Below, piece by piece: positions 32,004 to 56,942 of a stretch of 64,000 bases of DNA. The DNA lies in assembly GCA_022710725.1 (NCBI GenBank), contig JAKLGK010000010.1, positions 67,190 to 131,189 on the forward strand, read 5' to 3'. A program made the translations under genes and the position numbers. The notes beneath the pieces are model-generated. The model was not told the origin of the DNA. It searched no databases and saw only the letters and a list, made by a program, of their open reading frames with translations. Source of the stretch: Verrucomicrobiota bacterium. Lineage in GTDB: Bacteria; Verrucomicrobiota; Kiritimatiellia; CAIQIC01; JAGNIJ01. The first letter of the stretch is position 1; each line of letters opens with the position of its first letter.

Positions 32004-32079
<76 letters not shown>

Positions 32080-32488: not shown

Positions 32489-33565
32489 CTACACGATCTT
32501 TACCTTGGCGAGTTCGGCATCGATGAACGGCTGGCAGAGGTGTGCGTAGTGTTTTTGGAGCACCGTGGACGAGGGGGTATGCCCGACAACTATTTTAACC
32601 GCCTCGATATTTGACCCACTTTCAATGGCTCTACTGCAAAAATAGTGGCGGAAAGTATAAGGCGTGAATCCTTTCAATCCCGCGTTCTTAACGGCTCTCT
32701 TGAAGTGCTTCGGATAGCCATGAGCCCGGAATGCCGGTCGGCGCGGATGGAAGAACACCCAGTTGTGGGGCTTCCCGTCGGCAAAGACCTGCTCCCATTC
32801 CGTTTGCCACGCCAATAGGATGGGGAGGAGTTCCGGCAAGATGTTGACCGCCCTGAATCGTCCAGTCTTGAGATCGTGCTCTTGTTTGGGACGCACAAGG
32901 ATCTGCATCCTCTTGAAGTCGATATCGTCCCAGGAGAGGTGGAAGGATTCGCTGGGTCGCATCCCTGTGTACGCCATCAAGGCCATCCAGCAATAGACTT
33001 GGGAGCCTTCTGCTTTTCCGGCTTCAAGCAATGCCCTCATCTGCTCGGGGTTGGGAACCGGGCGATCACGAAGCACTTCCTTCAGGTTTTTGACTTCTTT
33101 CGCCGGATTCTGAAAAGCGTACTCTCTCTGCATCGCAAACTTGAACAGGTTGCGAAGGGTGATGAGTTCAAGGTTTACGGTTCTATTGGCCATGCCTTTT
33201 CTTTTCCGATCCTCCACGTATTTTTGAACATCCGATACTGCGATGGATGTCATGGGGGTCTTGTTGAAAAAGCCCAGGAGAGGGGGCCTCCGCGTCTTTT
33301 CACCGGCTATTGTGGACGCGGCACAGTCGCATGCACGGTATTCCAAGTACTCGCTGAAAATCTCGGCCAATGACTTGTTCCCTTTGCCACGAAATACCTT
33401 GCCTTCAATAATCACATCGTGCTTTCGTTTAGCTTCGGCAGCACTCGCGCGGCCCTTGGTTAGAAATCCTCCCTTACGATACCGTTGCCCCCTATGCCAA
33501 AAAGAGTAGTACCAAACGGGATGAGACCATTTATCCAAATGGTCTTTTCTTTGCCATACACTCAT
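32489..33565 (-). CDS. tyrosine recombinase / phage-type integrase
   Basis: MAYTGMRPSE (Arg), YTFRHYF (His-x-x-Arg), GHTPSSTVLQKHYAHL (His..Tyr). The start is 33565 (2 nt after the upstream stop) or 33601. Confidence 0.9.
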   Translation of the reverse strand: MSVWQRKDHLDKWSHPVWYYSFWHRGQRYRKGGFLTKGRASAAEAKRKHDVIIEGKVFRGKGNKSLAEIFSEYLEYRACDCAASTIAGEKTRRPPLLGFFNKTPMTSIAVSDVQKYVEDRKRKGMANRTVNLELITLRNLFKFAMQREYAFQNPAKEVKNLKEVLRDRPVPNPEQMRALLEAGKAEGSQVYCWMALMAYTGMRPSESFHLSWDDIDFKRMQILVRPKQEHDLKTGRFRAVNILPELLPILLAWQTEWEQVFADGKPHNWVFFHPRRPAFRAHGYPKHFKRAVKNAGLKGFTPYTFRHYFCSRAIESGSNIEAVKIVVGHTPSSTVLQKHYAHLCQPFIDAELAKVKIV

Positions 33566-33567
33566 GG

Positions 33568-34710
33568 TCAGATCTCTCCGCTCTTGGTCTTGTTGAACCA
33601 TGCATCCAAGTCCGACTTTTTGTAGGTATTCGGAGAGCCCGTCAGGTAAGGGATTTCCTTGTTATGCAGGAGCCACGATGGACTCCTCCGTAGATACATG
33701 GCTGCTTCCTTCGTCGTTAGGTACTCGTAATCCGCAAAATTGACCGTACTCTTGGCCAGGGATACGGCCGGGTGATGGTCCCGGCCAAGATCTTTCTCTT
33801 CCTGTCTTTTTGCCTTACCCGCATGTGCCGTCTCATCAAGGGATTCGCTCGAACTCGATGACGAATACACCACTTCCGAGGCTGTTTCCGGCACAGGCGC
33901 GGGCGGGGTGATGAGATATTCGGTGGATCGAGTCAGACCCGTGTTAAATGACTTTATCGAGTAGTTTACCGGCAGTTCTTCCAGGATGGCCCAGTCGTAG
34001 TGATCCTTGATTTCTGGAGCCATGTCATACGTCGCCACCCATCTGGTCCGTCCACGGAGAGCCTCGGCAAGGGCTTTGTGCTGCTCGGTCTGGAAATATT
34101 CCCGATACACGGATTTGCCTGCTTTGACATAGGGGGGATCGACGAACAGGACAGCATCGACAGGAGCTTCACGGATAAGCTGTATCCCGTCCTGGCAAAA
34201 GACCTTGGTGCGACCACGGAGCAGTTTGCGGGCCTCGATACATTCGGCGATGATTCTTCTGCAATTAAACCTGTCACCGATATGGCACTTGCCATCCTGT
34301 CCATATCCGCCAAGAGGGCCAGAATTTGCCATCCCACTGAACGTGCAATGGTTAAAGAAAATGGCACGGTAAGCACGCTCAACCTGGTCCTTGGGTGGGG
34401 TGGCGCGGAGTTGCTCAAGCAGTTCTACAGATGGAGCTTGGATGATAAGGTTAAGTAACCGCTGACACTCCCTGTCAGAGCCACTGGCCAGCACGTGCCA
34501 GAATGCCGATACGTCTTGGTCTAGGTCGTTTAGCCAGATTTCGATGTCGGGATAGTCCTGGGCCACGCTCAGCCCCACACTGAATCCACCGGCGAACGGC
34601 TCGACGTACAAGTGGGCATCACGCAACAACGGGTCGAGCTTTTCTCGGATTGAACCGATAAGTCTGTATTTTCCGCCAGGATACCTGAACAATGAGAGGT
34701 GCTTTTTCAT
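33568..34710 (-). CDS. D12-class (Dam-type) N6-adenine DNA methyltransferase fused to a C-terminal excisionase-like HTH
   Basis: FRYPGGKYRL (AdoMet motif) and FVDPPY (catalytic motif IV). The C-terminal 60 aa (YLTTKEAAMYLRRSPSWLLHNKEIPYL...YKKSDLDAWF) look like an HTH_17/Xis-type domain. Confidence 0.85.
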   Translation of the reverse strand: MKKHLSLFRYPGGKYRLIGSIREKLDPLLRDAHLYVEPFAGGFSVGLSVAQDYPDIEIWLNDLDQDVSAFWHVLASGSDRECQRLLNLIIQAPSVELLEQLRATPPKDQVERAYRAIFFNHCTFSGMANSGPLGGYGQDGKCHIGDRFNCRRIIAECIEARKLLRGRTKVFCQDGIQLIREAPVDAVLFVDPPYVKAGKSVYREYFQTEQHKALAEALRGRTRWVATYDMAPEIKDHYDWAILEELPVNYSIKSFNTGLTRSTEYLITPPAPVPETASEVVYSSSSSSESLDETAHAGKAKRQEEKDLGRDHHPAVSLAKSTVNFADYEYLTTKEAAMYLRRSPSWLLHNKEIPYLTGSPNTYKKSDLDAWFNKTKSGEI

Positions 34711-35318
34711 GAGGCACCGCCCTGTTCCTGCTGGTCAAGCCATGCGTAATACTCGTCTTGCGTTGTATCATCCGGCATGTCCCACATCGGCTCGCTGTAT
34801 GGATTGCTAATACGTGGCCGGAAAACAACTATGGCCACGGGGAATGGAGCCGGATATTCAGCGCCTTTAAATGTCAATCGTCCTATGGGGAACCGTATTT
34901 CAGATGCCTTGGCTGCGTACTGGTGCCACCAGTCCGTATCCACTCGTGCGGGTACAAGAGCAACCACCAGGGCAGCATTGTCCCGACACTCTATGTAGGC
35001 CTTTCTCAACCATTTTGGGAGTTCGGCGCTGTAGGGCGGATTCATAAAGACCCTCTCCCCTGCCCATGACTGCGCCAATCCATCTTCCGCTGGGGTGTAG
35101 TGCTTTTTACATTTGGCGGTCTTGTGGGTGCAGCAGGGGTCCAAGTCAAATTTGAACTCCAAATTCAAATACTCGAACCACACTGCCGGGGTAGCCCAAC
35201 TGTTGTTCCCTGTACTGGTCAATACCTGACGTGCATGCTCTGCTGTTTTATTTCTGCATACTTTATTATCTGCATCTGAGTTTGCCGGATTATCTCCAGC
35301 GGGTTTTGACTTCTTCAT
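34707..35318 (-). CDS. phage-type DNA N6-adenine methyltransferase (T1 Dam-like family)
   Basis: WATP..WF..LN.EF.FDLDPC...W.GERVFMNPPYS pattern with the NPPY catalytic motif. ATGA overlap with the downstream methyltransferase. Confidence 0.8.
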   Translation of the reverse strand: MKKSKPAGDNPANSDADNKVCRNKTAEHARQVLTSTGNNSWATPAVWFEYLNLEFKFDLDPCCTHKTAKCKKHYTPAEDGLAQSWAGERVFMNPPYSAELPKWLRKAYIECRDNAALVVALVPARVDTDWWHQYAAKASEIRFPIGRLTFKGAEYPAPFPVAIVVFRPRISNPYSEPMWDMPDDTTQDEYYAWLDQQEQGGAS

Positions 35319-36429: not shown

Positions 36430-39400
36430 CTACTTCTCCCCCCATGTCTGACACGCCTTGCAATCCACCACGATTGGCACTTGCGGGAAAATGGCCGCCA
36501 TCGCCTCGACCATGGCGTCGTGCACTATGGTATTTACCGCCTCAGCCTGCTCCGATGGTGTCTCGACGATCAGTTCGTCGTGGACGGTTGAGACGATTCC
36601 TGCCCCGTACGGTAGGCGGCTGGCGACAAGCAGAATTGCTTTTTTCATTCCGTCGGCACAGCTCCCCTGGACCGGCGTGTTCAGTAGCGTAGAGAATCGC
36701 GCCCATCTTTTGTCAAATCCGGCGGGCAGCATGCGCCTGCGGCCCAGTAGCGTTCGGACTTCCTTGGCACCACCAGCCTCAAGCCCTGCTTTGTCGTGCC
36801 AACGCCGCAGCCCTCGGTAGGCATTGAAAAATCGCTCTCTCATCTGAACGGCCTGTTGGTCAGTAAGCGTTACGCCGTAACTGGTTTTGGCGTACTTCAC
36901 CAATGTTGCCGCATACATTCCGTAGAGCAACCCGAAGTTCACGGCCTTGGCCAATTGTCGATCCTCTTTCGACACCGCATCGGGACTGATGCCCAGGACA
37001 AGGCTCGCCGTCTGCTTGTGCAAATCAGCCCCTTGGCGATACGCCTCGATCATTTTTGGTTCGTTGGCGATGGCCGCGGCGGCTCTCAACTCGATTTGCG
37101 AGTAGTCGGCAACAACCAAGGAGCAGCCTGGGCTTGCAACGAAGCAGTTTCGCAGCTCGCCTCGGGCGATGTTCTGCAGGTTAGGGTCCTTGGAGGAGAA
37201 TCTGCCTGTTTCAGTTCCGGTGGGTTCAAAACGCCCATGAATGCGTCCGTCCGGGCCTATCTTTTGAAGAAGCTTTTCTGTTTGTTCGGTGCGTTTCTGG
37301 GCGTTGCGATAAGCCAGGATATGAGGTACAAACCGGTCGTCGCCGCTGGCCTGTAAGGCTTCTTCGCCTGTTGATTCCAATGTAATACCCACACCGGCCA
37401 GCACGGTCTTGAGTTGCGCCGGTGAAGCCGGGTTGAGGGCAGGGGCATTGAATGTCTGTCGCAGCACCGTAGCTGCGGTGTCTCGCTCTTCTGCCGCCTT
37501 CTTGGAAAGGACCGCCAACCTGACCTTATCAATAGCAAACCCCCGAGCCTCGATATCCACCACCACCGGCAGGAGGTCCATCTCGGTTTCATACACCGTC
37601 AGCAACCCGGCCTTTTCTAGTTCGCCCTGGAGCTTTCCATGTAGGGCATGAAGATGATGCACATCGTCTGCGGCGTACCGCAGTTGTTCCTCGGACAACG
37701 CCATTGCCCCCCAATCAGATCGCCCTTGGTCCTTGGGCAGGTCTATTTGGAGGTGACGGGAAATTATAGCCCCGAGGTCGTTCGGCTCTTTGGTCCCGTT
37801 GGTCAACAAGCGACTGGCCGTCATGGTGTCCAGCACATTGCGGAGCACCAAGCCGCATTTAACCCGCAGCCACAGCGCATCAAACTTGATGTTGTGGCCC
37901 AAGACCGGCTTGGCGGGCAGCACCGCGCCGAGCGGTCCAAGATCGTAGCCAATAGCTTTCAGGTCCAGCACCCATGGGGAAACGCCTGGGATAGCCAAGG
38001 ATAGGAGCCGTATATCGCCCTGCCATGGGTCTAACCCGCCCTTGGCTCCATACGTTTCTATGTCCAAGGCAACGGGTTCCGATGCCGCCGTAATCTGGTC
38101 GGCTATGCCTTTTAGGGCGTCCGAGGATGTCACCAGGTCAAAGCAGGGGATTGTGGAAGATGCGGGCACCTTGGGCACGTTAGGCACCTGTTCTATGCTC
38201 TTATATATTTCCCTCTCTTTATTTTTCATCTCTATATTATTTGAAGAATTGGTTTTAATATAGGGAGTATAGGGAAGGTGCCCAAGGTGCCCAACGTGTC
38301 CACCTCCGGAAGGCGATTCTCCGACCTTGGCAGAGTTAAAAACGGTATCGAACATGGCGGCGCGGGCATTTACGGTAGAACCGCCCGCATCTTTCACGAA
38401 CCGATATGTATGCTGCTGAGATTTCTTGGCAGAGGCATTGCGTTCCAATCGGATACCGCCCAGAACACGCCCTACATGCTTATTCAGCAGTAGGGCGAAG
38501 GATGTGCGTCCGCCACGGCTTTCAAGGTCGAGCCACCCGAACAGCTCTGTGCCCTCGCCCTCAAGCAGTTCCATGATACGGCCCTTATTCACCCATTCCC
38601 CGTTGAACTGCTCGTGAGCCAGCGCAAATAGCGTCTTCATGTCGCCGGTTTGCTGGTCCCCGGCGATTTGGGTCCCGTCATTGGGAACAGGAAGACATGG
38701 ATCGCCCAATCCAGCAGAAGTCATGATGCCACCTACCACCTTTGCCCAGAGCGGGTAGCTGGTAAATGGGCTGGGTCCCGACGGGCGGCCCTGCATGTCC
38801 CAGTGGTCAACCAGCGCTGCAATAGCGGAGAGGACCCGACCACGGTTTGCGCGCAGCCACCCATGCAGGTCTGGCCTTTGGAAGGTTCGAGCGTTGGGGT
38901 CCTCCTCGCTGTAGAACAGCATAATCGGACGGCACCGAGCGTCGAGGTCCGGCGTGTAAGTCAATCCTGTATTAGCTGACAAACTGATCTCCATCTCATT
39001 CGGAAGGCTGATCGTGGTATTGCCTCCTAAAACACGGTCCGTCCATACCTCGGCTGTGCCGATACTTTCAAACGCCGAATTGTTTATATGCCCCTTGCAG
39101 TTTGCGAAGTGAATCCGACGCCGACCGGCGATCAGCGCAGAGGTAATTTTCTTGCGTGTCTCGGCCACGTCTGCGGTTAGCGGGGCATCCTCGTTTGTAC
39201 GGCCCTCATAGAGTATCGACGCAAGATTGGCCTCGCAATCTTTGCCTGCTCGTGCGCGGTTTGCGCCGTGGAACCACGTGGGTGTCCGAGCAGTCCATCG
39301 CCCGAACAGGCCGCGGCAGAAAGGCGTAATGAGCGCCGCTATGGCATGGGTAATGTCCTGCGCCGTCCGAAAACAGAACTCAAAATACAATTCACGCAGC

Positions 39401-40911
39401 AAGGCCAGGGCATCTGCCACTGGCATGCGCTCGATTTTCGGGGCGTCCTCGGCAAGATACGTCATGAAGCGCGGATCGTAGCCGGTGGACGGGTAGCAAA
39501 TTATCCCCTCCGGCGTGAGGATGGGAATCGGCACATCCAAGATACGTTCGACAACAGGCAGCTGCTCCCGAAATTGTTGTGCTGCCAATACTACCTCGGC
39601 TGTGTTTTTGTCCATGGAGCGGGCATTGAAAACGTCATTGCCCAGATCGTCCTTCGTCAAAAACCCCACCTCGGCGTAACTTTCCATCAAGGTAATCAAC
39701 CTAGCGGGCTTAACGACGGCAAATCCTAGGCACAGTTGTCCTTTTGCGAATTGGATCTGACTGATTTCCACAACCAGGCCGTTACGAAGGAAAAGACGCC
39801 TGACGCTAGTCGATGTGGCAATCGCTGCTCCTGCGTCTTTTGCAAAATCTGAGGCGGAGCGCCCTACACCGGGGAGGATGAGGCGCGGCCGCCCGTCCTG
39901 AGCAGTTTGACCCGGCTGAAAAACTCTCATCCGTTTACAGTGCAGGTCTACGCAGCCCGGTTCCGCTAATTCAAACCAATCCAGTACTTCGGCGAGATGC
40001 CGCTCAGCGCAATGTGCGTGCAGGCAAGAAAAACCCGGCATACTGTCAGGTGGCGCAAAGATTACAGTGCTGGAGTCGTCGGCAGCCTCTGCCTTGTCAC
40101 CATGCTCTGTTCGCCAAGGGCACAGGGCGGAGTATTTATTTTCATCCGGCGTGACGAGGTCGCCAAGCATCCCTGCGTCATGAAACAGTTCCGCTATATC
40201 TAGCGTGCGTAGGTCGCCCTGGTATTTCGCCCACCACGCTGCTTTATTCTGTCTGCGAACGGTGTGGCTGTCGGTTGTTTCTCCCTCATCGGTAGGCAGC
40301 CTGAATCCGAACCATTGCTGGAGTTGCGACCATGTTACGGTTGGAACTTCTCCCTTGGTCCTCCACTCGTAGGCCGATCCGTTTGGGTGAATGGAGGGCG
40401 GCAACACGATGTTAAGTCCGTCATAATACAGCTCTATCGTAAGCTTTTCGTTGATGTGGGAAATTAGAGCCTTCTCATACCTCTTCCCATTAGATTTCTT
40501 GAACTGGGGCAGATCATAGCAAACGAACACGAGCCGTTCGCCATTGCCGGTGGAATAGCGGGGGACATTCTTAAGATGCGCTTGCGCGGGCTGGTCATCT
40601 AACCACGCCCGCACGCTAGCACCCTGGTCCTTTTTCGAATCAAGGTCTATGAAGACCCATGGACGGCGGACCACGACTCCGAGATTGGAGGTTGTGCCAT
40701 TACTAAAGTACGTTGAAAGAAATTCATCCGTCACTTTTTCAACAGACCAACATTTCCAATCCCGAAGTCGTGGCTTTTTGCCCCGTTCGCTTGGCCCGCC
40801 CTCGCTAGGGCCATGTAGCGGGTGAACCGCCCACCCAAGGTCACGATACAGACGTGCTGCGGCCAGTTTATGGCTTGGTATTTCATCTGGTATTGTAAAA
40901 ACCTCGCTCAT
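36430..40911 (-). CDS. fusion replicase: N-terminal bifunctional primase-polymerase (PrimPol) + Zn motif + ~500-aa central region + C-terminal family A DNA polymerase with 3'-5' exonuclease
   Basis: PrimPol: GKKPRLRDW, WVFIDLDS, IVLPPSIHPNGSAYEW. Zn motif: CPWRTEHGD...FSCLHAHC. Exonuclease: LDIETYG, GHNIKFD, YAADDVHHL. Polymerase motifs A/B/C: VADYSQIELR, RQLAKAVNFGLLYG, STVHDELIVE. Confidence 0.9.
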   Translation of the reverse strand: MSEVFTIPDEIPSHKLAAARLYRDLGWAVHPLHGPSEGGPSERGKKPRLRDWKCWSVEKVTDEFLSTYFSNGTTSNLGVVVRRPWVFIDLDSKKDQGASVRAWLDDQPAQAHLKNVPRYSTGNGERLVFVCYDLPQFKKSNGKRYEKALISHINEKLTIELYYDGLNIVLPPSIHPNGSAYEWRTKGEVPTVTWSQLQQWFGFRLPTDEGETTDSHTVRRQNKAAWWAKYQGDLRTLDIAELFHDAGMLGDLVTPDENKYSALCPWRTEHGDKAEAADDSSTVIFAPPDSMPGFSCLHAHCAERHLAEVLDWFELAEPGCVDLHCKRMRVFQPGQTAQDGRPRLILPGVGRSASDFAKDAGAAIATSTSVRRLFLRNGLVVEISQIQFAKGQLCLGFAVVKPARLITLMESYAEVGFLTKDDLGNDVFNARSMDKNTAEVVLAAQQFREQLPVVERILDVPIPILTPEGIICYPSTGYDPRFMTYLAEDAPKIERMPVADALALLRELYFEFCFRTAQDITHAIAALITPFCRGLFGRWTARTPTWFHGANRARAGKDCEANLASILYEGRTNEDAPLTADVAETRKKITSALIAGRRRIHFANCKGHINNSAFESIGTAEVWTDRVLGGNTTISLPNEMEISLSANTGLTYTPDLDARCRPIMLFYSEEDPNARTFQRPDLHGWLRANRGRVLSAIAALVDHWDMQGRPSGPSPFTSYPLWAKVVGGIMTSAGLGDPCLPVPNDGTQIAGDQQTGDMKTLFALAHEQFNGEWVNKGRIMELLEGEGTELFGWLDLESRGGRTSFALLLNKHVGRVLGGIRLERNASAKKSQQHTYRFVKDAGGSTVNARAAMFDTVFNSAKVGESPSGGGHVGHLGHLPYTPYIKTNSSNNIEMKNKEREIYKSIEQVPNVPKVPASSTIPCFDLVTSSDALKGIADQITAASEPVALDIETYGAKGGLDPWQGDIRLLSLAIPGVSPWVLDLKAIGYDLGPLGAVLPAKPVLGHNIKFDALWLRVKCGLVLRNVLDTMTASRLLTNGTKEPNDLGAIISRHLQIDLPKDQGRSDWGAMALSEEQLRYAADDVHHLHALHGKLQGELEKAGLLTVYETEMDLLPVVVDIEARGFAIDKVRLAVLSKKAAEERDTAATVLRQTFNAPALNPASPAQLKTVLAGVGITLESTGEEALQASGDDRFVPHILAYRNAQKRTEQTEKLLQKIGPDGRIHGRFEPTGTETGRFSSKDPNLQNIARGELRNCFVASPGCSLVVADYSQIELRAAAAIANEPKMIEAYRQGADLHKQTASLVLGISPDAVSKEDRQLAKAVNFGLLYGMYAATLVKYAKTSYGVTLTDQQAVQMRERFFNAYRGLRRWHDKAGLEAGGAKEVRTLLGRRRMLPAGFDKRWARFSTLLNTPVQGSCADGMKKAILLVASRLPYGAGIVSTVHDELIVETPSEQAEAVNTIVHDAMVEAMAAIFPQVPIVVDCKACQTWGEK

Positions 40912-42522: not shown

Positions 42523-42618
42523 GGTCACAAAAAAGTGCGGGGTGGCGGTCGAATTTACTTCCAAAAATGGCTCTGGCCTGATATGCTATTCCTCGAAATC
42601 ATAGACGGAGGTGATAAA

Positions 42619-42933
42619 ATGATTGCCCAAGCTGAAAAAACGATAGCCTCGGTAAACCAGGAAGACGTTAGGCCACGGGAACTGTGTTTACCCGTGTTTA
42701 CAAGAACGTCCCATGGTACAGATTCAAACCTAGACCGCCTCAAGCTTTTAATGACTTTATTTTCGCTTTCGCAGGCGGACCTTTGTCGTGCCAGTGGATT
42801 TTCCCGCCCATTTCTTAGCCGTTTGTTGTCAGGCGACCTTGTGGGGAGTGAACGATTCTGGCTGAAGCTGAACTCTCGCTTGCTGGATCTCCTGTCCAAA
42901 ACCGGTACTTGGTGCTCGGTCTTCAAAGTCTAG
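42619..42933 (+). CDS. XRE-like helix-turn-helix protein
   Basis: Start at the ATG at 42619, preceded by GGAGGTG. LSQADLCRASGFSRPFLSRLLSG is a classic HTH_XRE pattern. Confidence 0.65.
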   Translation: MIAQAEKTIASVNQEDVRPRELCLPVFTRTSHGTDSNLDRLKLLMTLFSLSQADLCRASGFSRPFLSRLLSGDLVGSERFWLKLNSRLLDLLSKTGTWCSVFKV

Positions 42934-42941
42934 GCGCGGAC

Positions 42942-43433
42942 ATGATGACCTGCCGTATCGAGTCGTGGTTACGCCAGCACTTCCCGCCAGAGATATCAGA
43001 TGACGTGAAGGAGCATTTCGATATCATCCCCAAAGTCGCTGCTTTCGACGGCATATCTTTTGGCCCACGCTTGAACTTCCTTGTGGGTGAAAGTGGCTCT
43101 GGTCGGACACGACTGCTGGAAAGGCTGAAAACTTCTGCTGGAATCATCGAACTTCCAGCACCGCCGCCCGTATCTTTCACAGCCATGAGCCACGGGCAGG
43201 TCGTTTTTACAGTAGGCATGCTTCTTGTGAAATCCACGACCCAAAAAACGGCCCTCTTGGTTGACGACATCTTATTCATGCTCGATGACCGCCTCGCCGA
43301 GCAATTCCTTGTGGGGGTGGTCGCGAGCAATAAGCAGGCGATACTGACAGTGACGCTGGGGGAGATGGAAAGGGCGGAGAGGTTGATGCGGAAAGCGGGC
43401 GTAAGTGGGTACGGCATCGTCTGGCAGAAGTAA
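42942..43433 (+). CDS. minimal ABC/SMC-like ATPase domain protein with degenerate Walker A
   Basis: FGPRLNFLVGESGSGRTRLLE (Walker A with Arg in place of Lys), MSHGQ (signature-like), ALLVDDILFMLDD (Walker B/D-loop). Only 163 aa. Confidence 0.5.
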   Translation: MMTCRIESWLRQHFPPEISDDVKEHFDIIPKVAAFDGISFGPRLNFLVGESGSGRTRLLERLKTSAGIIELPAPPPVSFTAMSHGQVVFTVGMLLVKSTTQKTALLVDDILFMLDDRLAEQFLVGVVASNKQAILTVTLGEMERAERLMRKAGVSGYGIVWQK

Positions 43434-44126
43434 GGGCCGGGCTTGAATCTGTATCTGGGCCGCAGTCATTCGGGGAAAAACTTGAGCCCCATGATTCTTC
43501 TCCGCACCGAGCCTGATTTCCGTTTTCTAAGCCAGCATTTCCCTGCCAAATCCCGTATACCATACCTGATGCTAGGGCCTGCGCATATCCGGCTAGTACT
43601 GAATCGCCAGGAGCACCTTAAACACGAGGGATATCGCAGTTTAGTCTTGCAACCCGAGGCCCCTTGGTTTAGCCTCACGCCTATAGCAAGGAGATTATAT
43701 TTCATCCGAGTTAAGGGCGGGGTAATGTGTTAGGGGCGGGGAGTGTAAACGCTGTCCTGCATACCGTTGAGAGTGACTGGAGAAACGACGAAGAAAAAGG
43801 AGGATGCAGAAATAGCAGTCGAACGTATATCCCTCAGTTTCGCTATTGAGGACGCTCGTTCACGCTAGCTGCTCAAAGGGCAGGCGTTGAATACAGATAC
43901 GCCATCCAGTTACACCGACATGTCAGCCAAGAATGCCTGGGACAACAAGTGGAAGACAAATTGCCGCGAGCGCACCAAAGGATGTGATGGTGTTAAGTGA
44001 AGAACACATGTACATCGCTGTGATGAATTCCAAGGCCTGCCTGCTTACTGCACTTGGATACCATTACTGGCGTTTGAGGCAAAAGCAAAGAAGATCTAAC
44101 GCACGCACACAGCCCTGGAGGCCCTA

Positions 44127-45641
44127 ATGCTAACAAAGAGGGAACAATCCAACCTGGAGACCCATGTTCTTGGGATTTTCCAGACCGTCGTTCTGCCAGA
44201 GATCACACCCGGAGGAGCCGTCCTCACGCGAGAAGCGGACGGAAGGGTCATCGAAGATTATGTGGCGACCCATCACCTGGTCGAATTATGTGTTGAGGTT
44301 GACGCCACTCTTTTCAAGCAGATTATTCATACCGCTTGCCAATGGTTTGCAAAAACACATGGCAACCCTCACAACCCATTTATGGTCACAACTCTTGCGC
44401 GAGCGGGCGCCTTTAATGATACGACGAGGGACGACATTGCAAAGGCCATCCTCGCGAAGCAGAAGCCAAGCGGCTTCTTTGAGCTATACTCCGGCTTTCT
44501 TGATGGGGGAAATATCTTCTCTACCCTTTGGGCGATTCGTATTCTTCAATTGCTCGGCCGACACGAAGCGACCTCGCCACCTATCCGCAAGGCGCTGAAT
44601 GCAATTGAAGGTCAGTGGGAGGATGTTCATCGTACATCGTTCAAGGGTTTCTTCTTTGAATTGCGACATGTGCCGTCTCATGGCAAGCGGCCATCTGCCG
44701 CAGCCACGAAACTTCTGACGGAGATCATCAAGGCACAGGCTGACAACGGCTTATGGGATGGTGAGGCGTTATATACGGCGTACGTATTGGGCAACCTGAC
44801 GAAAACTCCGTGGGAGCCAACATCTACCCAGCAATTTGCGGAAGACCATGCACTGAAGGCACTGTTCAGTCTTCGAGATTCCCCGCAGTCGCTACCGTCA
44901 GTGTTTCTTAAGGCGCGTAAGAAGTACCACGAATCAACATACCTACAACTGTGCTTTCGCTCACTCATTAGTTCTATCCGCTACCTTCGCATGCGATGCG
45001 GCAAAGATATGTCTCATGCAATTGCGTCAGTAGTAATGGGGTCGTTTCCTACGATCTACCACACAGCTCAACGTCTGGGGGCCGAACTTAAGCGGATGGA
45101 CGCTCAATATGGGGCTATACAAGCGCAGTTCTCTCATCTCGACCCATCCGCAAGCGTCCTGTTGAAAGAAAGTCCATATGAAAGAAACGTGTTTGTGATG
45201 ATGCCATTTCGAAAGGATCGCGACGAGCGCTATGAGCGAATCGAGAGTATTATCAGGCAAGAGCTCAAGAAGCACGGGTTCACTGCGTGGTTGGCCTCGG
45301 ACAAGACGGTAGCCCCTCAACTGTGGGATAACGTCGCTTCATTCCTTCTGGCGTGTAAGTACGGTATAGCCGTGTTTACTCGTATAGAGAAAGAAAGCAC
45401 TATACAGGAGGAGTTCAATCCGAACGTTTCGCTTGAACTCGGCTTCTGTCTGTCACGCGGGCGTAGCGTCCTTATTCTGAAGGACTCCTTCTTGCCACGA
45501 TTGCAGACAGACCTCATTGGCTATCTATACAAGCAATTCGACCTCAACCAAGTTACAAGGCAACTACCGCGGATTGTTCGTGCTTGGATACGAGATATTC
45601 TCAAAGCAGAGGAATGCGCAAAGAAGCAACCAACAAAATAA
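44127..45641 (+). CDS. fusion protein: N-terminal alpha/alpha-toroid (prenyltransferase/terpene-cyclase-like repeats) + C-terminal TIR/nucleoside 2-deoxyribosyltransferase-like domain
   Basis: Toroid-type repeats: KPSGFFELYSG..NIFSTLWAIRILQLLG and ADNGLWDGEALYTAYVLGNL. The C-terminal flavodoxin-like pattern is NVFVMMPFRKD...FTAWLASD...ACKYGIAVFT...NPNVSLELGFCLSRGRSVLIL. Confidence 0.6.
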   Translation: MLTKREQSNLETHVLGIFQTVVLPEITPGGAVLTREADGRVIEDYVATHHLVELCVEVDATLFKQIIHTACQWFAKTHGNPHNPFMVTTLARAGAFNDTTRDDIAKAILAKQKPSGFFELYSGFLDGGNIFSTLWAIRILQLLGRHEATSPPIRKALNAIEGQWEDVHRTSFKGFFFELRHVPSHGKRPSAAATKLLTEIIKAQADNGLWDGEALYTAYVLGNLTKTPWEPTSTQQFAEDHALKALFSLRDSPQSLPSVFLKARKKYHESTYLQLCFRSLISSIRYLRMRCGKDMSHAIASVVMGSFPTIYHTAQRLGAELKRMDAQYGAIQAQFSHLDPSASVLLKESPYERNVFVMMPFRKDRDERYERIESIIRQELKKHGFTAWLASDKTVAPQLWDNVASFLLACKYGIAVFTRIEKESTIQEEFNPNVSLELGFCLSRGRSVLILKDSFLPRLQTDLIGYLYKQFDLNQVTRQLPRIVRAWIRDILKAEECAKKQPTK

Positions 45642-45651
45642 TCCGGCGCAC

Positions 45652-45676
45652 AGTGAGCCCGCGGCGGGTTCACTGC
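45652..45676 (+). terminator. hairpin after the 504-aa gene (possible intrinsic terminator)
   Basis: CAGTGAGCCC-gcggc-GGGTTCACTG (10-bp stem including one G-U pair), followed by ccgcTGATTTGTG. Read by eye. Confidence 0.4.
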
Positions 45677-45807
45677 CGCTGATTTGTGACGTTGGCTTGA
45701 GATATCTGTTACTGAAATAGTGGGACGTTATGATGTGCTTGGCGGAGTTTTAGAGGAAAACGGATTAGGAAGCAAACCATGGCGTTCTGCCAAGGCTGTA
45801 GAAATCA

Positions 45808-47157
45808 ATGACAAAGAACCTGCACAGGAAAGCCGTCAGGGGCCAAGAAGGTGTCAACCTCGTAGAGAGGGTTGTTCTGGATATGAAGTCCAGATGGACG
45901 CCAAGCGGCCCTAACGAGGTTGGCATCGATGGTTTCATCGAACTGTTTGATTCGACGACTGGCAAGCCAACGGGCAAGAACATAGCGGTTCAATCAAAGG
46001 CCCTGGCCGCTCTTTGCCGGAAGGGCACCGACACCATCGAGTACTGGTGTGACCGCCGAGACATCGAGTACTGGTTGCGGCAGAATCTTCCAGTGATTCT
46101 CGTTGTCTCAAACCCAGATACTCCGGAGGCGTACTGGGCATGTATTCACGACCGGTTCCCGGATTACTCGCGACATGTGTCGCCGAAGATTCAATTTGAC
46201 GTTAAAGCCGACGCATTCTCCGCTTCAGCATGGGCTGCATTGCGCGGGCTGCGCACCCCGAAGATTGGCGGGAAGACCTTCATTGAAGCTTGCCAGCCCG
46301 GAACTGAACGAGCCGTCTCAAATCTCTTTCCTCTGCGTCGTTTTAGCGGCACGATCTATCATGGAATGACGGATATGCGTTATCCCATCGATGTGTGGCG
46401 ATCACTTCGCGAGGCTGCTGATTTCAACGATGGTGCCTGGGTGCTCCATGACAAGGGAGTATTCTCTTTTGCTGACCTCAAATCGCCGGAGTGGAACGCC
46501 ATCTGTGACAAGGGAACTGTGGAGCCGTTCGATACTGCTGAGTGGGCGGACTCTAGTAATGCTGACAGCCAACGGCTTTTCGTGCAATTGCTTAATCGAG
46601 CACTGAAATCGCAACTCAGTCCGAGGGTCCGTTTCTGGCCGAAACAGGATTGCTTCGCTTTTGTTGGTGGCCCTTGGACGGGTCGAGTTGTATTCCCTTA
46701 CCAGTCAGCAGAGAAAAAGAGCCATGTTACGGTTGTCGAAGAGTTCGCGCATGACACGGCCGATGGTCGGACCTTCGTCCATTACAGGCACTTAGCGTTC
46801 CGGGGGCGTTTCCGAAAACTCCAAGGCAAGTGGTTCTTGGAGGTCACTCCTACGTACCGGTTCACGCGCGACGGGAACTGGCTCTATCGATTTCACGAAG
46901 ATCAGTTGAAAGGGATCAAACGGATCGAGGGCAATAGAGCTGTTCTAAGCCAGGTCCTGGTGTGGGCTGAGTTCCTGTGTGAAACGGACGATATGTGGAC
47001 ATCCGTTCCCCGTCATCTTGAGTTCGTGCGTCCCGTTGAGATTGAGTTGCCAGCGATACTGCGGGATTCGGCATGGGGAAAACCACCGCAGCCCCCAAGC
47101 GAGGATTCTGATGATAGCATTATGGAACTTCCCTTTGGTGATGAGGTCATGTCATGA
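45808..47157 (+). CDS. DUF4365 (DREN nuclease)-APAZ protein, partner of the short pAgo
   Basis: The N-terminus has PD-(D/E)xK-like motifs (EVGIDGFIEL, NIAVQSK). The C-terminal APAZ hallmark is YRHLAFRGRFRKLQGKWFLEVTPTYRFTRDGNW. ATGA overlap with the next gene. Confidence 0.85.
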   Translation: MTKNLHRKAVRGQEGVNLVERVVLDMKSRWTPSGPNEVGIDGFIELFDSTTGKPTGKNIAVQSKALAALCRKGTDTIEYWCDRRDIEYWLRQNLPVILVVSNPDTPEAYWACIHDRFPDYSRHVSPKIQFDVKADAFSASAWAALRGLRTPKIGGKTFIEACQPGTERAVSNLFPLRRFSGTIYHGMTDMRYPIDVWRSLREAADFNDGAWVLHDKGVFSFADLKSPEWNAICDKGTVEPFDTAEWADSSNADSQRLFVQLLNRALKSQLSPRVRFWPKQDCFAFVGGPWTGRVVFPYQSAEKKSHVTVVEEFAHDTADGRTFVHYRHLAFRGRFRKLQGKWFLEVTPTYRFTRDGNWLYRFHEDQLKGIKRIEGNRAVLSQVLVWAEFLCETDDMWTSVPRHLEFVRPVEIELPAILRDSAWGKPPQPPSEDSDDSIMELPFGDEVMS

Positions 47158-48614
47158 GAGCGATCTTGCTGGAAGAACCGGAACTCGAATTTGGTGCAGG
47201 CACGCACGTGGATATTAGGTTTGGCCTAATGGAAAGCGGCCCGTTGGACCGTGATACAGATCTGGCTCCGCGTCCCTTGAAGGTTGGAGTAGTGGGAACT
47301 AAGAAGACGTGTGACGCAGCCTGCGAGTGGCTACAGAAACTGCGGGGTGAGATTCCGGCGCAGCAGACTCACCTTTCGAACTTACATCCACCTTTCCCGG
47401 GGATAGACGCATCTTCATGCTTCGGGACCGAACTGCAGATCCACGACAGGTGGATCTCTCCCGTCAGCATGCGCGAAGTAGACTCCATGATTTCCTCGTG
47501 CACTCCCGCTGAACTTGCAGAGCGATCGGTTGACCTCTTCTTGAGCCACGCGGATGATCTCGTGGATGCAGGCGGTCCGAGTGTCCTTATCGTCGCGCCT
47601 CCTCCGGAGCTGTTTGCCGCTCTTGAGTCAGATCCGAGGCCGCCAATTGACCCAGATGATCAAGAACTGGATGAAAGCACAGAGGCCACTCCCTCTGCTG
47701 CAACGCCGTGCTTCCACGATATCCTCAAAGCTAAAGGCATGCGTTTAGCCGTACCGATCCAGATGGTCCGCCCAAGGACCTATGGCATGACGGCGGGGAA
47801 CAAGAAGGGGCATAAAGGCCGGAAGACACTCCAAGACGAGGCGACGCGTGCATGGAACTTCGCCGTCGCTCTTTACTACAAGGCCGGCGGCACGCTCTGG
47901 CGCATCCCAAGGCAAACAAGCGACCTGACCGCGTGTTTTGTGGGGGTCAGCTTTTTCAAGATTCCGAACAGCAACGATGCAGCGTCAAGTGTGGCGCATG
48001 TGTTCAACGAGCGTGGCGAGGGAATCATTATTAAGGGTGGTGACGCGGCCTGGGACAAGTCTGAGCACCAGTATCACTTGTCCCGCAATGATTCCTTCGA
48101 CATTCTGTCCTCTGCACTGACGCTCTACCGTAAAGAGCATCACACCGTTCCTGCTCGCGTCATACTGCACAAGACATCGCCTTTCAGTGATGCCGAGCAG
48201 GATGGCTTCAAAGGCGCGTCGGAAAGGGAGAGGATCGCCTACACGGATTTGATACATGTCCGGCGGTCATATTCTCGGTTCTTTCGGACTGATATTTATC
48301 CGCCATTCCGTGGAACACTTGTGGAGCTAGAAGATGCCAGGGGGCTCCTCTATCTCCGGGGGAGCGTCTCCTTCTTCCAGGCATATCCGGGTCTCTATGT
48401 CCCCCGCCCTTTTGAGTTCTGTCTATGCCAGTCGGAGAATGGTGTTGAAGAAGTGGGAGAAGAGATGATGGCACTGTCTAAGCTGAACTGGAATAACACC
48501 CAGTTCGATGGTGGCGAACCAATCACTATCAGGGCAGCGCGACGTGTGGGCGATATACTGAAATGGATACCTCAAGATGTAAGCCCACGGAACGGATTCA
48601 GATTCTTCATGTGA
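47154..48614 (+). CDS. short prokaryotic Argonaute (MID-PIWI only, catalytically inactive PIWI)
   Basis: AWNFAVALYYKAGGTLWRI, ACFVGVSFF, RVILHKTSPF, MALSKLNWNNTQFDGGEPITIRAARRVG. At 486 aa there is no room for N/PAZ domains. The Asp positions are replaced (GVSF, HKTS). Confidence 0.9.
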   Translation: MRAILLEEPELEFGAGTHVDIRFGLMESGPLDRDTDLAPRPLKVGVVGTKKTCDAACEWLQKLRGEIPAQQTHLSNLHPPFPGIDASSCFGTELQIHDRWISPVSMREVDSMISSCTPAELAERSVDLFLSHADDLVDAGGPSVLIVAPPPELFAALESDPRPPIDPDDQELDESTEATPSAATPCFHDILKAKGMRLAVPIQMVRPRTYGMTAGNKKGHKGRKTLQDEATRAWNFAVALYYKAGGTLWRIPRQTSDLTACFVGVSFFKIPNSNDAASSVAHVFNERGEGIIIKGGDAAWDKSEHQYHLSRNDSFDILSSALTLYRKEHHTVPARVILHKTSPFSDAEQDGFKGASERERIAYTDLIHVRRSYSRFFRTDIYPPFRGTLVELEDARGLLYLRGSVSFFQAYPGLYVPRPFEFCLCQSENGVEEVGEEMMALSKLNWNNTQFDGGEPITIRAARRVGDILKWIPQDVSPRNGFRFFM

Positions 48615-48714
48615 AAGCATGTTACATCGAGGAAAGACAGCCACAAGGGCTTTCATGCCAACCTTGCTCGTGGGGTCGCTCGCAATAATGCCAAGCAACT
48701 GGCGTTCGACTAAC

Positions 48715-49221
48715 ATGATGAATATTAAATACATGGAATATGCGCTAGATCAAGCGCGAACAGCACTCGCCAATAATAACGTACCGATAGGCGCGGTAGT
48801 TGTACATGAGGGGTGTGTTATAGGGTGCGGCTATAATAGGGTTATGGGTGGGGATCGGTTTGGCCACGCGGAAATGATGGCCCTGCGCATGGCACATGAT
48901 GCAATAGCCGCATTGCGCATTTCAAGCAGAAGACGAGTTGAATTGTTTACGACGCTAGAACCTTGTATGATGTGCCTTGGAGCGGTCATGCAGGTAAATA
49001 TCGGGAAAGTAATTTACGCATTAAAGGCCCCAACTGATGGAGCTACGCATATGGCTGGGCCGCAGGTGGTCCATAGTGCACAGATCATGAAGTTCTATAC
49101 GCCGCCGATTGTTGAGAAGGGTGGCGGTGAGTCAGAGAGTAGACAGCTACTAAAGAAATTCTATACTGAACATTCTGCTCATTATCTGGGGAAGTGGGCT
49201 TTGTTATTGGCAGAGCAATGA
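48715..49221 (+). CDS. TadA/CDA-fold nucleoside (tRNA-adenosine-like) deaminase
   Basis: VPIGAVVV...GYN...HAEMMAL...TLEPCMMCLGAV zinc-binding deaminase motifs. The start is uncertain (48619, 48715 or 48733). Confidence 0.85.
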   Translation: MMNIKYMEYALDQARTALANNNVPIGAVVVHEGCVIGCGYNRVMGGDRFGHAEMMALRMAHDAIAALRISSRRRVELFTTLEPCMMCLGAVMQVNIGKVIYALKAPTDGATHMAGPQVVHSAQIMKFYTPPIVEKGGGESESRQLLKKFYTEHSAHYLGKWALLLAEQ

Positions 49222-49249
49222 TATATTCTCAAAGTGATGCGGAGACTAT

Positions 49250-49912
49250 ATGGAATCAAGGGTAACTACTTTTCGAGAATTCCACCACGAAGTATTTAAG
49301 ATAGACAATCGAGATGAAATATACAGAGGCGTGAGATGCTGTGATTACCGCCTGATCCCAAAGCTGGGCAGAATAGATCAATTCGCAAGAGGTGCGCTTG
49401 AATCCAGCGAAAGGCAAATGCTGAAATTGTTTCAGAATCAAGCATTGCCGTATTTGAATACTGTGCCTGATAATCTGTGGGAGTGGTTAGCGCTCGCACA
49501 ACATCATGGGCTGCCGACTAGGCTTCTTGACTGGACTAGAAATCCTCTTGTGGCGGCATGGTATGCGGTAGAGAGGTCGCATGATGGGGATAGTATGCTG
49601 TATTGCTATGAGAATAGAAACATAGTTGACATCGGGAGGCACAGAAACCCATTTAAAATCAAAGAAGTGGTTAAATTCATACCAAGGCATCTAACTAATC
49701 GTATCACAGTTCAAACGGGACTCTTTACATGTCATCCAAGGCCTCGTGATGAATTTAGTCCAGCCAGCATGAGAAAGATAATTATAGCAAAAGAGTTCAG
49801 GAGGGAATTGAAAAACATACTCTGGAAATATGGCGTGCACAGATTCTCGCTGTTTCCAGATTTAGATGGTCTGTGCCGACATATTCAATGGCTTAGAACA
49901 ATCACACACTAG
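49250..49912 (+). CDS. FRG domain protein
   Basis: IYRGV...LIPKLGR...WEWLALAQHHGLPTRLLDWTRNPLVAAWYA matches the FRG-domain signature as I remember it. Confidence 0.8.
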   Translation: MESRVTTFREFHHEVFKIDNRDEIYRGVRCCDYRLIPKLGRIDQFARGALESSERQMLKLFQNQALPYLNTVPDNLWEWLALAQHHGLPTRLLDWTRNPLVAAWYAVERSHDGDSMLYCYENRNIVDIGRHRNPFKIKEVVKFIPRHLTNRITVQTGLFTCHPRPRDEFSPASMRKIIIAKEFRRELKNILWKYGVHRFSLFPDLDGLCRHIQWLRTITH

Positions 49913-50134: not shown

Positions 50135-51211
50135 CTACGCACCAACGCACACCTCATCCGGGAACACAGTGGCGATATATTCGAACTCCATGAGAGTACT
50201 CGGGCGTTTGTGCCGATGCTCCCAGAGCGGGAATGTCGGCCAAATTATCCGGTCAGGTAGGGCATTATGGGTGCTGGCTATTTGTGGGTCCAGTTTGACC
50301 AGCATCAGTATTTTGGAGACAAGCGATTGATCCCATAGAAGACTGTGCATACCAGCGTAATTGGCGGCAAGCGCTACAACTGCCTCGTCTTTTGAAAAAG
50401 GCTGCATAGGCAACACGCTGCTGATCTGGAACTTCTCGTCACAGCGGGGGATATCACGAAACCGATTGTTCCAAATATCCTCAACTCCCAGCTCGGTCAT
50501 CGTGTGATTATTCAGCGGGATGCAGAAAGCCAAAAGCATAATCGACCAAACCCACTGGGCGCAGGAAACCATGAGTAGAGATTGAGTGTCGGCTTCGGAG
50601 TTCACGTGGAATAATGAAATTGCCAGGCGGCGGAGAGCCTCTACATCCGTGAAATCAGCGGGGTCACTTTCCATGTCTGTGTCGTCATTCACAAGGTTGG
50701 CCAGCGTGTAGATTTGTGTCCAGCCGTCCACTTGCTGTTGATAAATATCGTTAAGCGGAAATGTGGGCGCATGGGGCCTGAAGAGATGGAATTGGCCCCT
50801 TTTGTCCGTGCGCAGCAGTTTATTCTCCACACACAAAACAGGTTCTATAGTCTTGCGGGTGGCCGCTGTTACCATTAGAAACAGATCCCCATGGCGGGTG
50901 GCCAAGATGTCGTTATGCCAACAGCGTTGACGCTTGGCTTCTCTCATGTCTCCCGCATCGGGTTCAAGATAGACAACAATGTCGCCAGCCTCGCCAATAT
51001 TGGGCATTTCCGCATTCGGTTGCACATTAATGACGCCATCTCCTTTTGGACTGATTATGTCCACCGGAGTAGCTGCTGGGCGGCCAGTAATAGCGGCGAT
51101 CTTGTCGGCCAACCCGGGGAGCGCAGCGGCCGGGTTCACAAAACAGAATTCTCGGCTATCAACGCCCAGGTAGTCTTTCTTCAGTTCCCATTTCTTCATA
51201 GACGGCCCCAT
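50135..51211 (-). CDS. hypothetical protein (orphan, opposite strand)
   Basis: 358-aa ORF with normal amino-acid composition. The start is 51211 or 51199 (MKKWELKK). No family recognised. Confidence 0.55.
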   Translation of the reverse strand: MGPSMKKWELKKDYLGVDSREFCFVNPAAALPGLADKIAAITGRPAATPVDIISPKGDGVINVQPNAEMPNIGEAGDIVVYLEPDAGDMREAKRQRCWHNDILATRHGDLFLMVTAATRKTIEPVLCVENKLLRTDKRGQFHLFRPHAPTFPLNDIYQQQVDGWTQIYTLANLVNDDTDMESDPADFTDVEALRRLAISLFHVNSEADTQSLLMVSCAQWVWSIMLLAFCIPLNNHTMTELGVEDIWNNRFRDIPRCDEKFQISSVLPMQPFSKDEAVVALAANYAGMHSLLWDQSLVSKILMLVKLDPQIASTHNALPDRIIWPTFPLWEHRHKRPSTLMEFEYIATVFPDEVCVGA

Positions 51212-56638: not shown

Positions 56639-56942
56639 CTGCATTCCCATTTCCCGAATGTCAACAGTATGGTCCCGAATGGCGGCTGAACTTATTGAGT
56701 AAACTACAGTCCGAGTGCACCATGCCTGCTCATCTTGCGAGAGCCTTTTCGGTCCAGGCCAGAAGTGCGGCACAAAAATGAACATCATTATTGAGAAACG
56801 CCGGTGCGAAGCTAGGGAAATAGGCCGATATCAGGTGTGCGATACACTATTTTAATGTTGTTTGAAAAATCTTCTTGCACTAGGTATCCCCGCCGACTAG
56901 AAAGCAACTGTTCGCAAGGAGTGCAGGCCAAGGGAGGCTGTC

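Follow-up and report, generated by a model that had tools for sequence, protein, structure and literature searches.

TIR and nucleoside 2-deoxyribosyltransferase-like (NDT-like) N-glycosidases are central immune effectors in bacteria, plants and animals, and the sensor attached to them varies and sets what is recognised. In SPARTA, a TIR NADase is fused to APAZ. In Swarozyc, a single-gene anti-phage NADase with a DUF4062 TIR-like domain, experiments have shown the NADase activity and the trigger, the phage portal, which the auxiliary domain recognises; the TIR-like domain there stands between the TIR and NDT families, has one catalytic Glu and is joined by helical stalks to the auxiliary domain, which defence requires, and the system is patchy, horizontally transferred and found beside varied defence neighbours (bioRxiv 10.64898/2026.05.01.722283). 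In Retron-Eco1 it is an NDT-like effector that defends the cell by hydrolysing NAD(P)+ (PMC12673091). The subject here is a 504-amino-acid (aa) protein with a domain of this kind, encoded by an ATG-initiated gene at 44127-45641 (plus strand, stop included) in a 64,000-nucleotide (nt) stretch of DNA from a Verrucomicrobiota bacterium (GenBank assembly GCA_022710725.1, contig JAKLGK010000010.1, positions 67,190 to 131,189; ‘the window’ below is this whole stretch). The protein joins an N-terminal alpha/alpha toroid, through a stalk helix, to a C-terminal TIR/NDT-like domain. No description of that combination was found in PADLOC or in the literature searched, in keeping with a sequence-only reading of this DNA that knew of no such system. 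The gene is taken to be a self-contained, mobile single-protein conflict module (anti-phage or abortive-infection) with an N-glycosidase effector, a reading given a probability of roughly 0.55.

The reading frame lies far above chance, with 62 database relatives in a search of 5.8 billion proteins. About 42 of these are full-length (476-525 aa, 26-60% identity, E 1e-41 to 1e-200), almost all of them from metagenomes or metagenome-assembled genomes (MAGs), and in an alignment of 42 full-length sequences (A1) conservation runs the whole length of the protein. The AlphaFold2 model of the full-length protein, built on A1, has a mean predicted local distance difference test (pLDDT) value of 89.2 and shows, in order, a short N-terminal helix with a beta-hairpin, 12 helices at aa 45-291, one helix at aa 296-346 and an alpha/beta domain from aa 352. 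The family combines this three-part architecture with an invariant Glu motif, has no conserved gene partner, and recurs in defence and mobile contexts; a defence function is suggested by that context and by the domain content.

The C-terminal domain (aa 352-500; 45180-45626, plus strand) was proposed from the letters alone to have a TIR/NDT-like fold, over the last ~150 aa of the protein, and the domain model and Foldseek agree on this. In a domain-only model made with 42 relatives, including ones that have only the C-terminal domain (pLDDT 91.9, predicted template modelling score 0.88), parallel strands alternate with helices. The signature FNPNVSLELGF (aa 430-440; 45414-45446, plus strand) holds a candidate catalytic residue, Glu437 (codon 45435-45437). 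Within it N431, N433, V434, L436, E437, G439 and F440 are invariant in A1, and the two Asn residues, the Glu and the Gly stay invariant after divergent C-terminal-only relatives are added. Elsewhere in this part F356/M358, D392, W400, R444 and D462 are also invariant, the pattern around the Glu reading N431-x-N433-V-x-L-E437-x-G-F. (The two peptides that first drew attention to the domain are in the translation as VFVMMPF, aa 355-361, and NPNVSLELGFCLSRGRSVLIL, aa 431-451.) In the model Glu437 opens the helix that follows beta-3, the third core strand. The catalytic Glu of TIR and NDT enzymes occupies such a place, and the modelled position suggests that Glu437 is its equivalent.

Foldseek searches with the C-terminal domain return, at E 1e-5 to 1e-3, NDT-superfamily N-glycosidases and TIR NADases interleaved. 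On the NDT side are the T. brucei NDT 2a0k with the best E (1.4e-5), a Chroococcidiopsis NDT, the purine deoxyribosyltransferase 1s2l and 8pq*, with human DNPH1 and the CMP N-glycosidase BcmB as further matches; on the TIR side are SARM1 (4.5e-5), TIR-STING 9lmq_D (with the highest query TM-score, 0.62), 7un8 and C. elegans TIR-1. In Pfam, the only match of the window protein’s C-terminal domain is to PF10137 (CAP12/Pycsar TIR), which also matches 34 of the 42 full-length relatives at E<=0.01 (best 4.5e-8), many of them already annotated as such. PF05014 (NDT) does not match the window protein at E<=1 and matches one of the 42 relatives, at E=0.01. C-terminal-only relatives match PF05014 and PF10137 about equally and always below threshold (PF05014 reaching at most 27.6 bits against a cut-off of 28.8), and PF05014 is the best weak Pfam match in several C-terminal-domain relatives. 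Since the relatives match both families to a similar degree, the clade falls between the two, and it is taken to form a branch of its own within the TIR/NDT assemblage, a little closer to PF10137. Its extent is considerable. A profile search of 1.84 billion representatives at 50% identity gives 1,745 proteins at E<=1e-3, of which roughly 30 representatives have the full architecture and more than 1,300 share the C-terminal domain only. Current Pfam thresholds mostly miss this clade of ~1,700 clusters at 50% identity, found in many phyla and in one archaeal MAG.

The N-terminal domain (aa 1-291; 44127-44999, plus strand) is, by DSSP and Foldseek, a 12-helix (alpha/alpha)6 toroid of terpene-cyclase/thioester-domain (TED) type. 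Prenyltransferase/terpene-cyclase repeats had been recognised in it from the sequence, and the folds matched, together with weak cyclase matches, bear that out. C3d/thioester domains and GH88 enzymes are (alpha/alpha)6 toroids, and these are what Foldseek finds in the PDB: C3d/TED at E~1e-4 with target-normalised TM-scores of 0.44-0.49, and GH88 unsaturated glucuronyl hydrolase, the set as a whole spanning E~1e-4 to 2e-3, which is moderate support. (The fold search on both halves that the sequence-only reading had advised leads to C3d/TED and GH88 for the toroid, and to NDT/DNPH1 and TIR for the C-terminal domain.) At the level of sequence the likeness to cyclases is below threshold: Pfam SQHop_cyclase_N matches aa 96-161 with E=4e-3 and 16.7 bits against a cut-off of 26.2, and TIGR01787 squalene cyclase with E=4e-3 and 15.8 bits against 322.7. 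The motif FSTLW (aa 131-135; 44517-44531, plus strand), within GFLDGGxxFSTLWA, is of the prenyltransferase/cyclase repeat type and invariant in A1; its similarity to an ‘STLa’ repeat in the class II cyclase domain of abietadiene synthase is non-significant (E=0.04). Other invariant residues of the toroid are T48-H49-H50, D166, W210-D211, Y219, Q274 and R278. A QxxxGxW motif at aa 204 is present in 34 of the 42 relatives. The barrel and this motif are shared with terpene cyclases and prenyltransferases, but the catalytic motifs are rare or absent in the family (DxDD in 1/42, DDxxD in 2/42, CGEQ in 0/42), and canonical cyclase or thioester chemistry is rejected on that ground. A profile search with the N-terminal part only finds nothing beyond the same ~500-aa architecture, so the toroid is private to the family; the idea that it is a swappable sensor carried by other effectors was dropped on the same evidence.

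Between the two domains a single long helix (aa 296-346; 45012-45164, plus strand; assigned by DSSP, pLDDT 74-96) forms a stalk or linker that is possibly a coiled-coil, and through which the protein may oligomerise. Matches to haptoglobin-receptor and haemagglutinin structures are coiled-coil noise on this helix and were set aside.

Among described proteins, the effectors closest by sequence are those of PF10137, TIR-STING of CBASS and PycTIR of Pycsar: this family gives the best and only recurrent Pfam match, 9lmq and 7un8 give the highest query TM-scores (0.58-0.62), and the kinship presumably extends to an ‘N-V-x-x-E-x-G’ helix start with the Glu and a downstream ‘TDL-x-G-x-LY’ strand in common. 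By analogy with them the toroid protein may be an NADase effector switched on by a fused sensor. Unlike them it has no STING, SAVED or cyclic nucleotide-binding sensor and no cyclase gene, its candidate sensor being the toroid N-terminal to the catalytic domain. Neither CD-NTase, pyrimidine cyclase nor STING/SAVED was found in the protein or among its neighbours in 13 contexts, namely the window and 12 other independent loci. Divergent members do have weak PADLOC matches to the CBASS ‘Effector TIR’ model and to PDC-S35.

In logic the nearest are Swarozyc and SARM1, and in fold NDT/DNPH1 match just as well. The resemblance to Swarozyc is one of format. Both are single genes with a divergent TIR-like domain, a helical stalk, an auxiliary domain and a patchy spread; the TIR-like domain is N-terminal there and C-terminal here, the auxiliary domain differs, and the TIR-like families are not the same, the window protein having no match to DUF4062 at E<=1 in a Pfam scan. 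SARM1/TIR-1 is the top Foldseek match of the full-length model (7djt, E=1.3e-4), and the logic of an N-terminal all-helical regulatory domain followed by a C-terminal TIR NADase could by analogy apply to both. However, the global TM-score is 0.20, the match rests on the TIR part, and identity is 11-16%; in place of the ARM solenoid and the SAM octamerisation domains of SARM1, the toroid protein has one stalk helix and a toroid that is closed. For NDT, DNPH1 and BcmB the likeness lies in the best single Foldseek E of the C-terminal domain and in a fold with an invariant Glu; the beta-1 sequence ‘VFVMMPF’ also seems to resemble ‘YxAGPxF’ of NDT, and ‘N-x-N-x-x-x-E-x-G’ its ‘D-x-G-T-x-x-E-x-G’. 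Housekeeping NDT enzymes differ in being small stand-alone oligomers without a sensor domain, and Retron-Eco1 in its retron, since no retron reverse transcriptase or multicopy single-stranded DNA accompanies the toroid protein. In contrast to SPARDA and SPARTA the toroid gene has no APAZ domain and does not co-occur with a prokaryotic Argonaute (pAgo) at other loci. As for Thoeris, neither the protein nor its window neighbours have a PADLOC match to ThsA or ThsB, and there is no conserved partner.

We know of no sensor role for the alpha/alpha toroid fold in prokaryotic immunity. What would be new here is a TIR/NDT-type effector on a new candidate sensor fold in single-gene format. If the reading is right, the known defence systems gain a compact one that needs a single gene, and the known sensor folds gain one akin to terpene cyclases and the complement C3 thioester domain. 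A bolder proposal makes the protein the first of a single-gene immune family not yet described, in which a toroid sensor controls a TIR/NDT-bridging N-glycosidase clade; it is put forward tentatively, the balance being somewhat against it.

Other fusions of the C-terminal domain give some idea of the company it keeps. In one protein (P0093) it stands between a CHAT protease and a ThsA-type STALD SLOG domain. In another (P0101; L103 8001-9971) a toroid and the TIR/NDT-like domain are followed by an adenosine deaminase matching PADLOC CARF_ADA (E=5e-17). A third (P0192) has a canonical TIR_2/ThsB_TIR, a toroid and a degenerate TIR/NDT-like domain that lacks the NPNVxxE motif and has lost the Glu, which looks like effector replacement. 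CHAT, SLOG, TIR and CARF-type deaminase partners are hallmarks of nucleotide-based conflict systems, and on the bolder proposal these fusions would suggest a broad overlooked defence toolkit based on NAD and nucleotides. P0054-type proteins carry the TIR/NDT-like domain with a low-molecular-weight phosphatase domain; an initial description of such proteins (P0053-61) as having LMWPc as N-terminal partner was discarded, the Pfam coordinates placing the phosphatase C-terminal to the TIR-like domain.

Certain ColE1-type plasmids of Citrobacter freundii, Salmonella and Klebsiella, 3.5-7 kb in size, have essentially one cargo gene, and it encodes a relative of ~300-312 aa, the hypothetical protein WP_200002678.1 (L101 1648-2586 in NZ_OW967268.1; L102 1067-1972 in CP052530.1). 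The TIR/NDT-like domain of this relative is 36% identical to aa 352-490 of the window protein, and its presence on 3.5-kb plasmids makes it a convenient experimental proxy.

The full-length protein is found in a handful of MAGs among 185,579 GTDB species representatives: Vicinamibacteria (Acidobacteriota), Rhizobiaceae and Methanosarcina MAGs, with two contig-end fragments in addition. Such sparse cross-domain spread is typical of horizontally moving genes. No viral relatives are present in IMG/VR or in 50,697 GenBank phage records, and a viral origin was rejected, BFVD giving weak fold matches, all of them in the C-terminal domain.

Known or candidate defence genes adjoin the family gene in 5 of the 13 contexts. 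Besides the SPARDA pair in the window, these are an Old/AriA/GajA-like ATPase directly upstream in Vicinamibacteria, with a ParE toxin-antitoxin pair downstream (L004/L018); a caspase-like protease upstream, with Phd/ParE downstream (L014); PDC-S73 (Mrr-nSTAND3, E=1.7e-167) together with an LmuB-like SMC ATPase, both immediately upstream (L016); and a ThsB-type TIR with a SLATT two-transmembrane (2TM) protein directly downstream in a Methanosarcina MAG (L020). The last two genes (L020 1778-3090), a TIR of 143 aa and a SLATT_3+SLATT_1 protein of 300 aa with overlapping reading frames, are a TIR-SLATT conflict pair in an archaeal MAG. Three of the 13 contexts lie within integrative elements or prophages: the island in the window, a locus with an integrase directly upstream and AlpA and a relaxase downstream (L007), and a prophage-like region where the copy is truncated and adjoins a serine recombinase (L100). 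In a further locus (L005) a DUF4145 protein adjoins the gene. No pAgo or APAZ gene is present at any of the 12 independent loci and no neighbour recurs across them, from which the gene is deduced to be an autonomous unit; nor does the wider family with the C-terminal domain share any neighbour among its 78 GTDB loci. The stand-alone one-gene arrangement that the sequence-only reading offered as an alternative to a third SPARDA component is the one supported. The neighbourhood survey that it advised gives defence neighbours in 5 of 13 contexts and, outside the window, no co-occurrence with short pAgos.

How might such a protein work? The toroid would be a sensor or an autoinhibitory domain that binds a phage-derived protein or a small ligand, perhaps in a strongly conserved pocket (THH, FSTLW, WD and Q/R residues). 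The trigger would lead to release of the C-terminal domains, or to their oligomerisation through the stalk, and the activated domain would then cleave a nucleotide N-glycosidic bond, most probably that of NAD(P)+, the substrate of TIR-STING, SARM1, Swarozyc and the NDT-like Retron-Eco1 effector, so that the infected cell is arrested. To name NAD(P)+ specifically as the substrate is a possibility to which somewhat less than even odds are given. The protein would act independently of the SPARDA pair, both being co-resident cargo of the same tRNA-Phe island.

Several points weigh against a single-protein defence module. Foldseek cannot separate TIR chemistry, on NAD+, from that of NDT, DNPH1 and BcmB, on (deoxy)nucleoside monophosphates or nucleosides, and the PF10137 match of the window protein itself (20.9 bits, E=3.7e-4) is below the Pfam gathering cut-off of 24.7. 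Full-length, C-terminal and N-terminal profiles give no sequence-level match to solved structures, and PADLOC has no model for the window protein. The toroid was found fused to no other effector, which leaves a modular ‘sensor’ role without independent support, and its strongly conserved polar residues could mean that it is an enzyme. In about half of the contexts (L001/L019, L006, L023, L098 and L099) the neighbours are housekeeping genes or say little. The 5 of 13 with defence neighbours is a raw count, suggestive and not a statistical enrichment.

Some of the same points are the substance of the rival that survives best, though it too is unlikely: that the protein is a metabolic or secondary-metabolite enzyme. 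Its toroid would be catalytic or would bind lipid or glycan, in the manner of terpene cyclases, prenyltransferases or glycoside hydrolases, and its NDT-like part would act on a modified or prenylated nucleotide, in cytokinin-LOG/DNPH1-style salvage, or in terpene-nucleoside chemistry. The top Foldseek matches of the C-terminal domain are indeed genuine NDT, DNPH1 and CMP-glycosidase enzymes, PF05014 comes first in several relatives, many polar residues of the toroid are invariant, and GH88 is matched as well as C3d. There are also housekeeping surroundings: at one locus the family gene lies between two alpha-L-fucosidase genes (L099), at another a pyrimidine nucleoside phosphorylase is a few genes upstream (L023), and L001 is of this sort. 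But no isoprenoid, glycan or nucleotide operon is common to the loci and no neighbour is conserved, the DxDD, DDxxD and CGEQ motifs are absent, the distribution is patchy and crosses domains, there are copies on integrative elements and in a prophage, and the partners in fusions are CHAT, SLOG, TIR and CARF-type deaminase domains.

The copies on mobile elements can be taken another way. The protein could serve the element that carries it, either in counter-defence, by destroying the nucleotide signals of host immunity (cyclic ADP-ribose, cADPR, isomers or cyclic oligonucleotides), or as an addiction toxin that stabilises the element. In keeping with this are the copies on the tRNA-Phe island, the integrase/relaxase element and the prophage, the C-terminal-domain relative that is sole cargo of small ColE1-type plasmids, and the toxin-antitoxin pairs beside two copies. 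Yet there is no match in the phage records or IMG/VR, some copies lie on chromosomes where nothing marks a mobile element, no small antitoxin-like gene is conserved next to them, and a large regulatory domain joined to an effector typifies sensors and not small signal sponges or hydrolases. This explanation is improbable, a little more so than the metabolic one. On a par with it is a ThsB-like role, in which the protein, on sensing infection, would generate a second messenger derived from ADP-ribose for an effector encoded elsewhere in the genome. The CHAT-containing fusion joins the domain to a cADPR-type sensor and an effector protease in one chain, and the Methanosarcina copy lies beside a ThsB-TIR/SLATT pair; still, at no locus is a toroid-TIR-like protein accompanied in cis by a conserved partner or effector, and characterised stand-alone TIR-like proteins such as Swarozyc act by NAD+ depletion. 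Weakest, and very improbable, is an accessory third component of SPARDA (an upstream sensor or a co-regulated second effector), for although the toroid gene lies on the same strand 166 nt upstream of DREN-APAZ, in a linkage identical in 12 contigs, and the weak U tract of the intervening hairpin would permit read-through, those contigs amount to one observation, pAgo and APAZ are missing from all 12 independent loci (the ground for rejection), the gene has its own Shine-Dalgarno sequence and post-stop hairpin, and the two-gene SPARDA is already complete.

The single-protein defence module is preferred over all of these, and its setting in the window can be described as an island. The left end is marked by a tRNA-Phe gene (32004-32079, plus strand; ARAGORN and Rfam) and a tyrosine integrase gene (32489-33601, minus strand; Phage_integrase E=8e-25), and at 32 kb, right after the tRNA-Phe, GC content falls 17 points from ~0.69 in the flanking host DNA to ~0.52. 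These three features together place the toroid gene in the cargo of an island that measures 32 kb or more, is integrated at tRNA-Phe and has its right end beyond the window. The left part of the island has two Dam-type methyltransferase genes (33568-35318, minus strand) and encodes a 1,493-aa fusion of PrimPol, 3′-5′ exonuclease and PolA (36430-40911, minus strand). The cargo runs in the order toroid gene, SPARDA pair, cytidine/dCMP-type deaminase gene and FRG-domain protein gene. The exact toroid protein occurs on 12 contigs, every one with the same island and SPARDA linkage, and six of them compared over 43400-45900 are 100% identical; carrying the same island, the 12 count once.

The SPARDA pair (45808-48614, plus strand) consists of DREN-APAZ at 45808-47157 (PADLOC Aga_REase-PNTD1-PNTD2, E=3.8e-115) and a short pAgo at 47154-48614 (pAgo_I, E=2.5e-147). 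PADLOC defines SPARDA as a two-gene system, and both genes are complete in the window, where they are neighbours of the toroid gene and not components of its system. For the annotation of short-pAgo loci this means that the gene upstream of the pair shares the island with it without being a further SPARDA subunit.

The signals around the toroid gene are in accord with its being a separate unit. The 504-aa frame, its peptides, the 166-nt gap to the DREN-APAZ start, the hairpin and the TAATG overlap are all where the sequence-only reading had placed them. A Shine-Dalgarno-like GGAGG, read from the sequence, is at 44117-44121 (plus strand), 5 nt 5′ of the ATG, and purine-rich sequences of this type also precede the start codons at homologue loci. 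The GC-rich, terminator-like hairpin (45644-45681, plus strand) begins 3 nt after the stop and was recovered in a scan for terminator-like structures; it has an inner stem of 11 bp at 45651-45675 and an outer stem of 5 bp spanning 45644-45681, with a minimum free energy of -26.1 kcal/mol. Its z-score against shuffled sequence is only -1.89, and its U tail, UGAUUUGUGA, is weak. A scan for sigma-70 promoters 5′ of the toroid gene gave none that is convincing, the counts being at the level expected from shuffling, and in an Rfam scan only the tRNA matched, with no structured RNA in the ~690-nt gap 5′ of the gene. That gap (43434-44116) has no convincing open reading frame (ORF). Further upstream, 42909-43433 encodes 174 aa in which a P-loop/RecF-like signature is weakly matched, and 42535-42933 a small helix-turn-helix protein.

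A 64-codon ORF (43933-44127, plus strand) ends in TAATG over the start codon of the toroid gene and had been read as a hint of a coupled small membrane peptide, which it does not appear to encode. No similar start-overlapping ORF lies upstream at the 7 homologue loci inspected for conservation, and in six assemblies of the same island it is never called as a gene. Its best 19-residue Kyte-Doolittle mean, 0.88, is well below membrane-helix grade. GC content at its three codon positions is 0.48/0.51/0.51 against 0.56/0.41/0.54 in the flanking genes, so that the coding pattern is absent, and a Pfam match to SRAP (E=0.011) is chance-level noise. The main gene’s own GGAGG, 5 nt before its ATG, counts further against translational coupling. 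The ORF is judged non-coding and outside the system, and the overlap is treated as coincidental.

Downstream of the SPARDA pair, in the region 48619-49912, the deaminase gene starts 5 nt after the pAgo stop and encodes 200 aa of cytidine/dCMP type (MafB19-like, E~1e-19); the FRG-domain protein that follows has 220 aa and matches the PADLOC candidate PDC-S15 (E=1.6e-73). An ORF of 358 aa on the minus strand (50135-51211) has no Pfam, NCBIfam or PADLOC match. From ~56900 to 64000 on the plus strand, frame 3 is occupied by an ORF of more than 2,350 codons that has a signal-peptide-like N-terminus and runs off the right end of the window; its counterpart on a related contig (L009) is 2,773 aa long and has Laminin_G/TSP3-type repeats.

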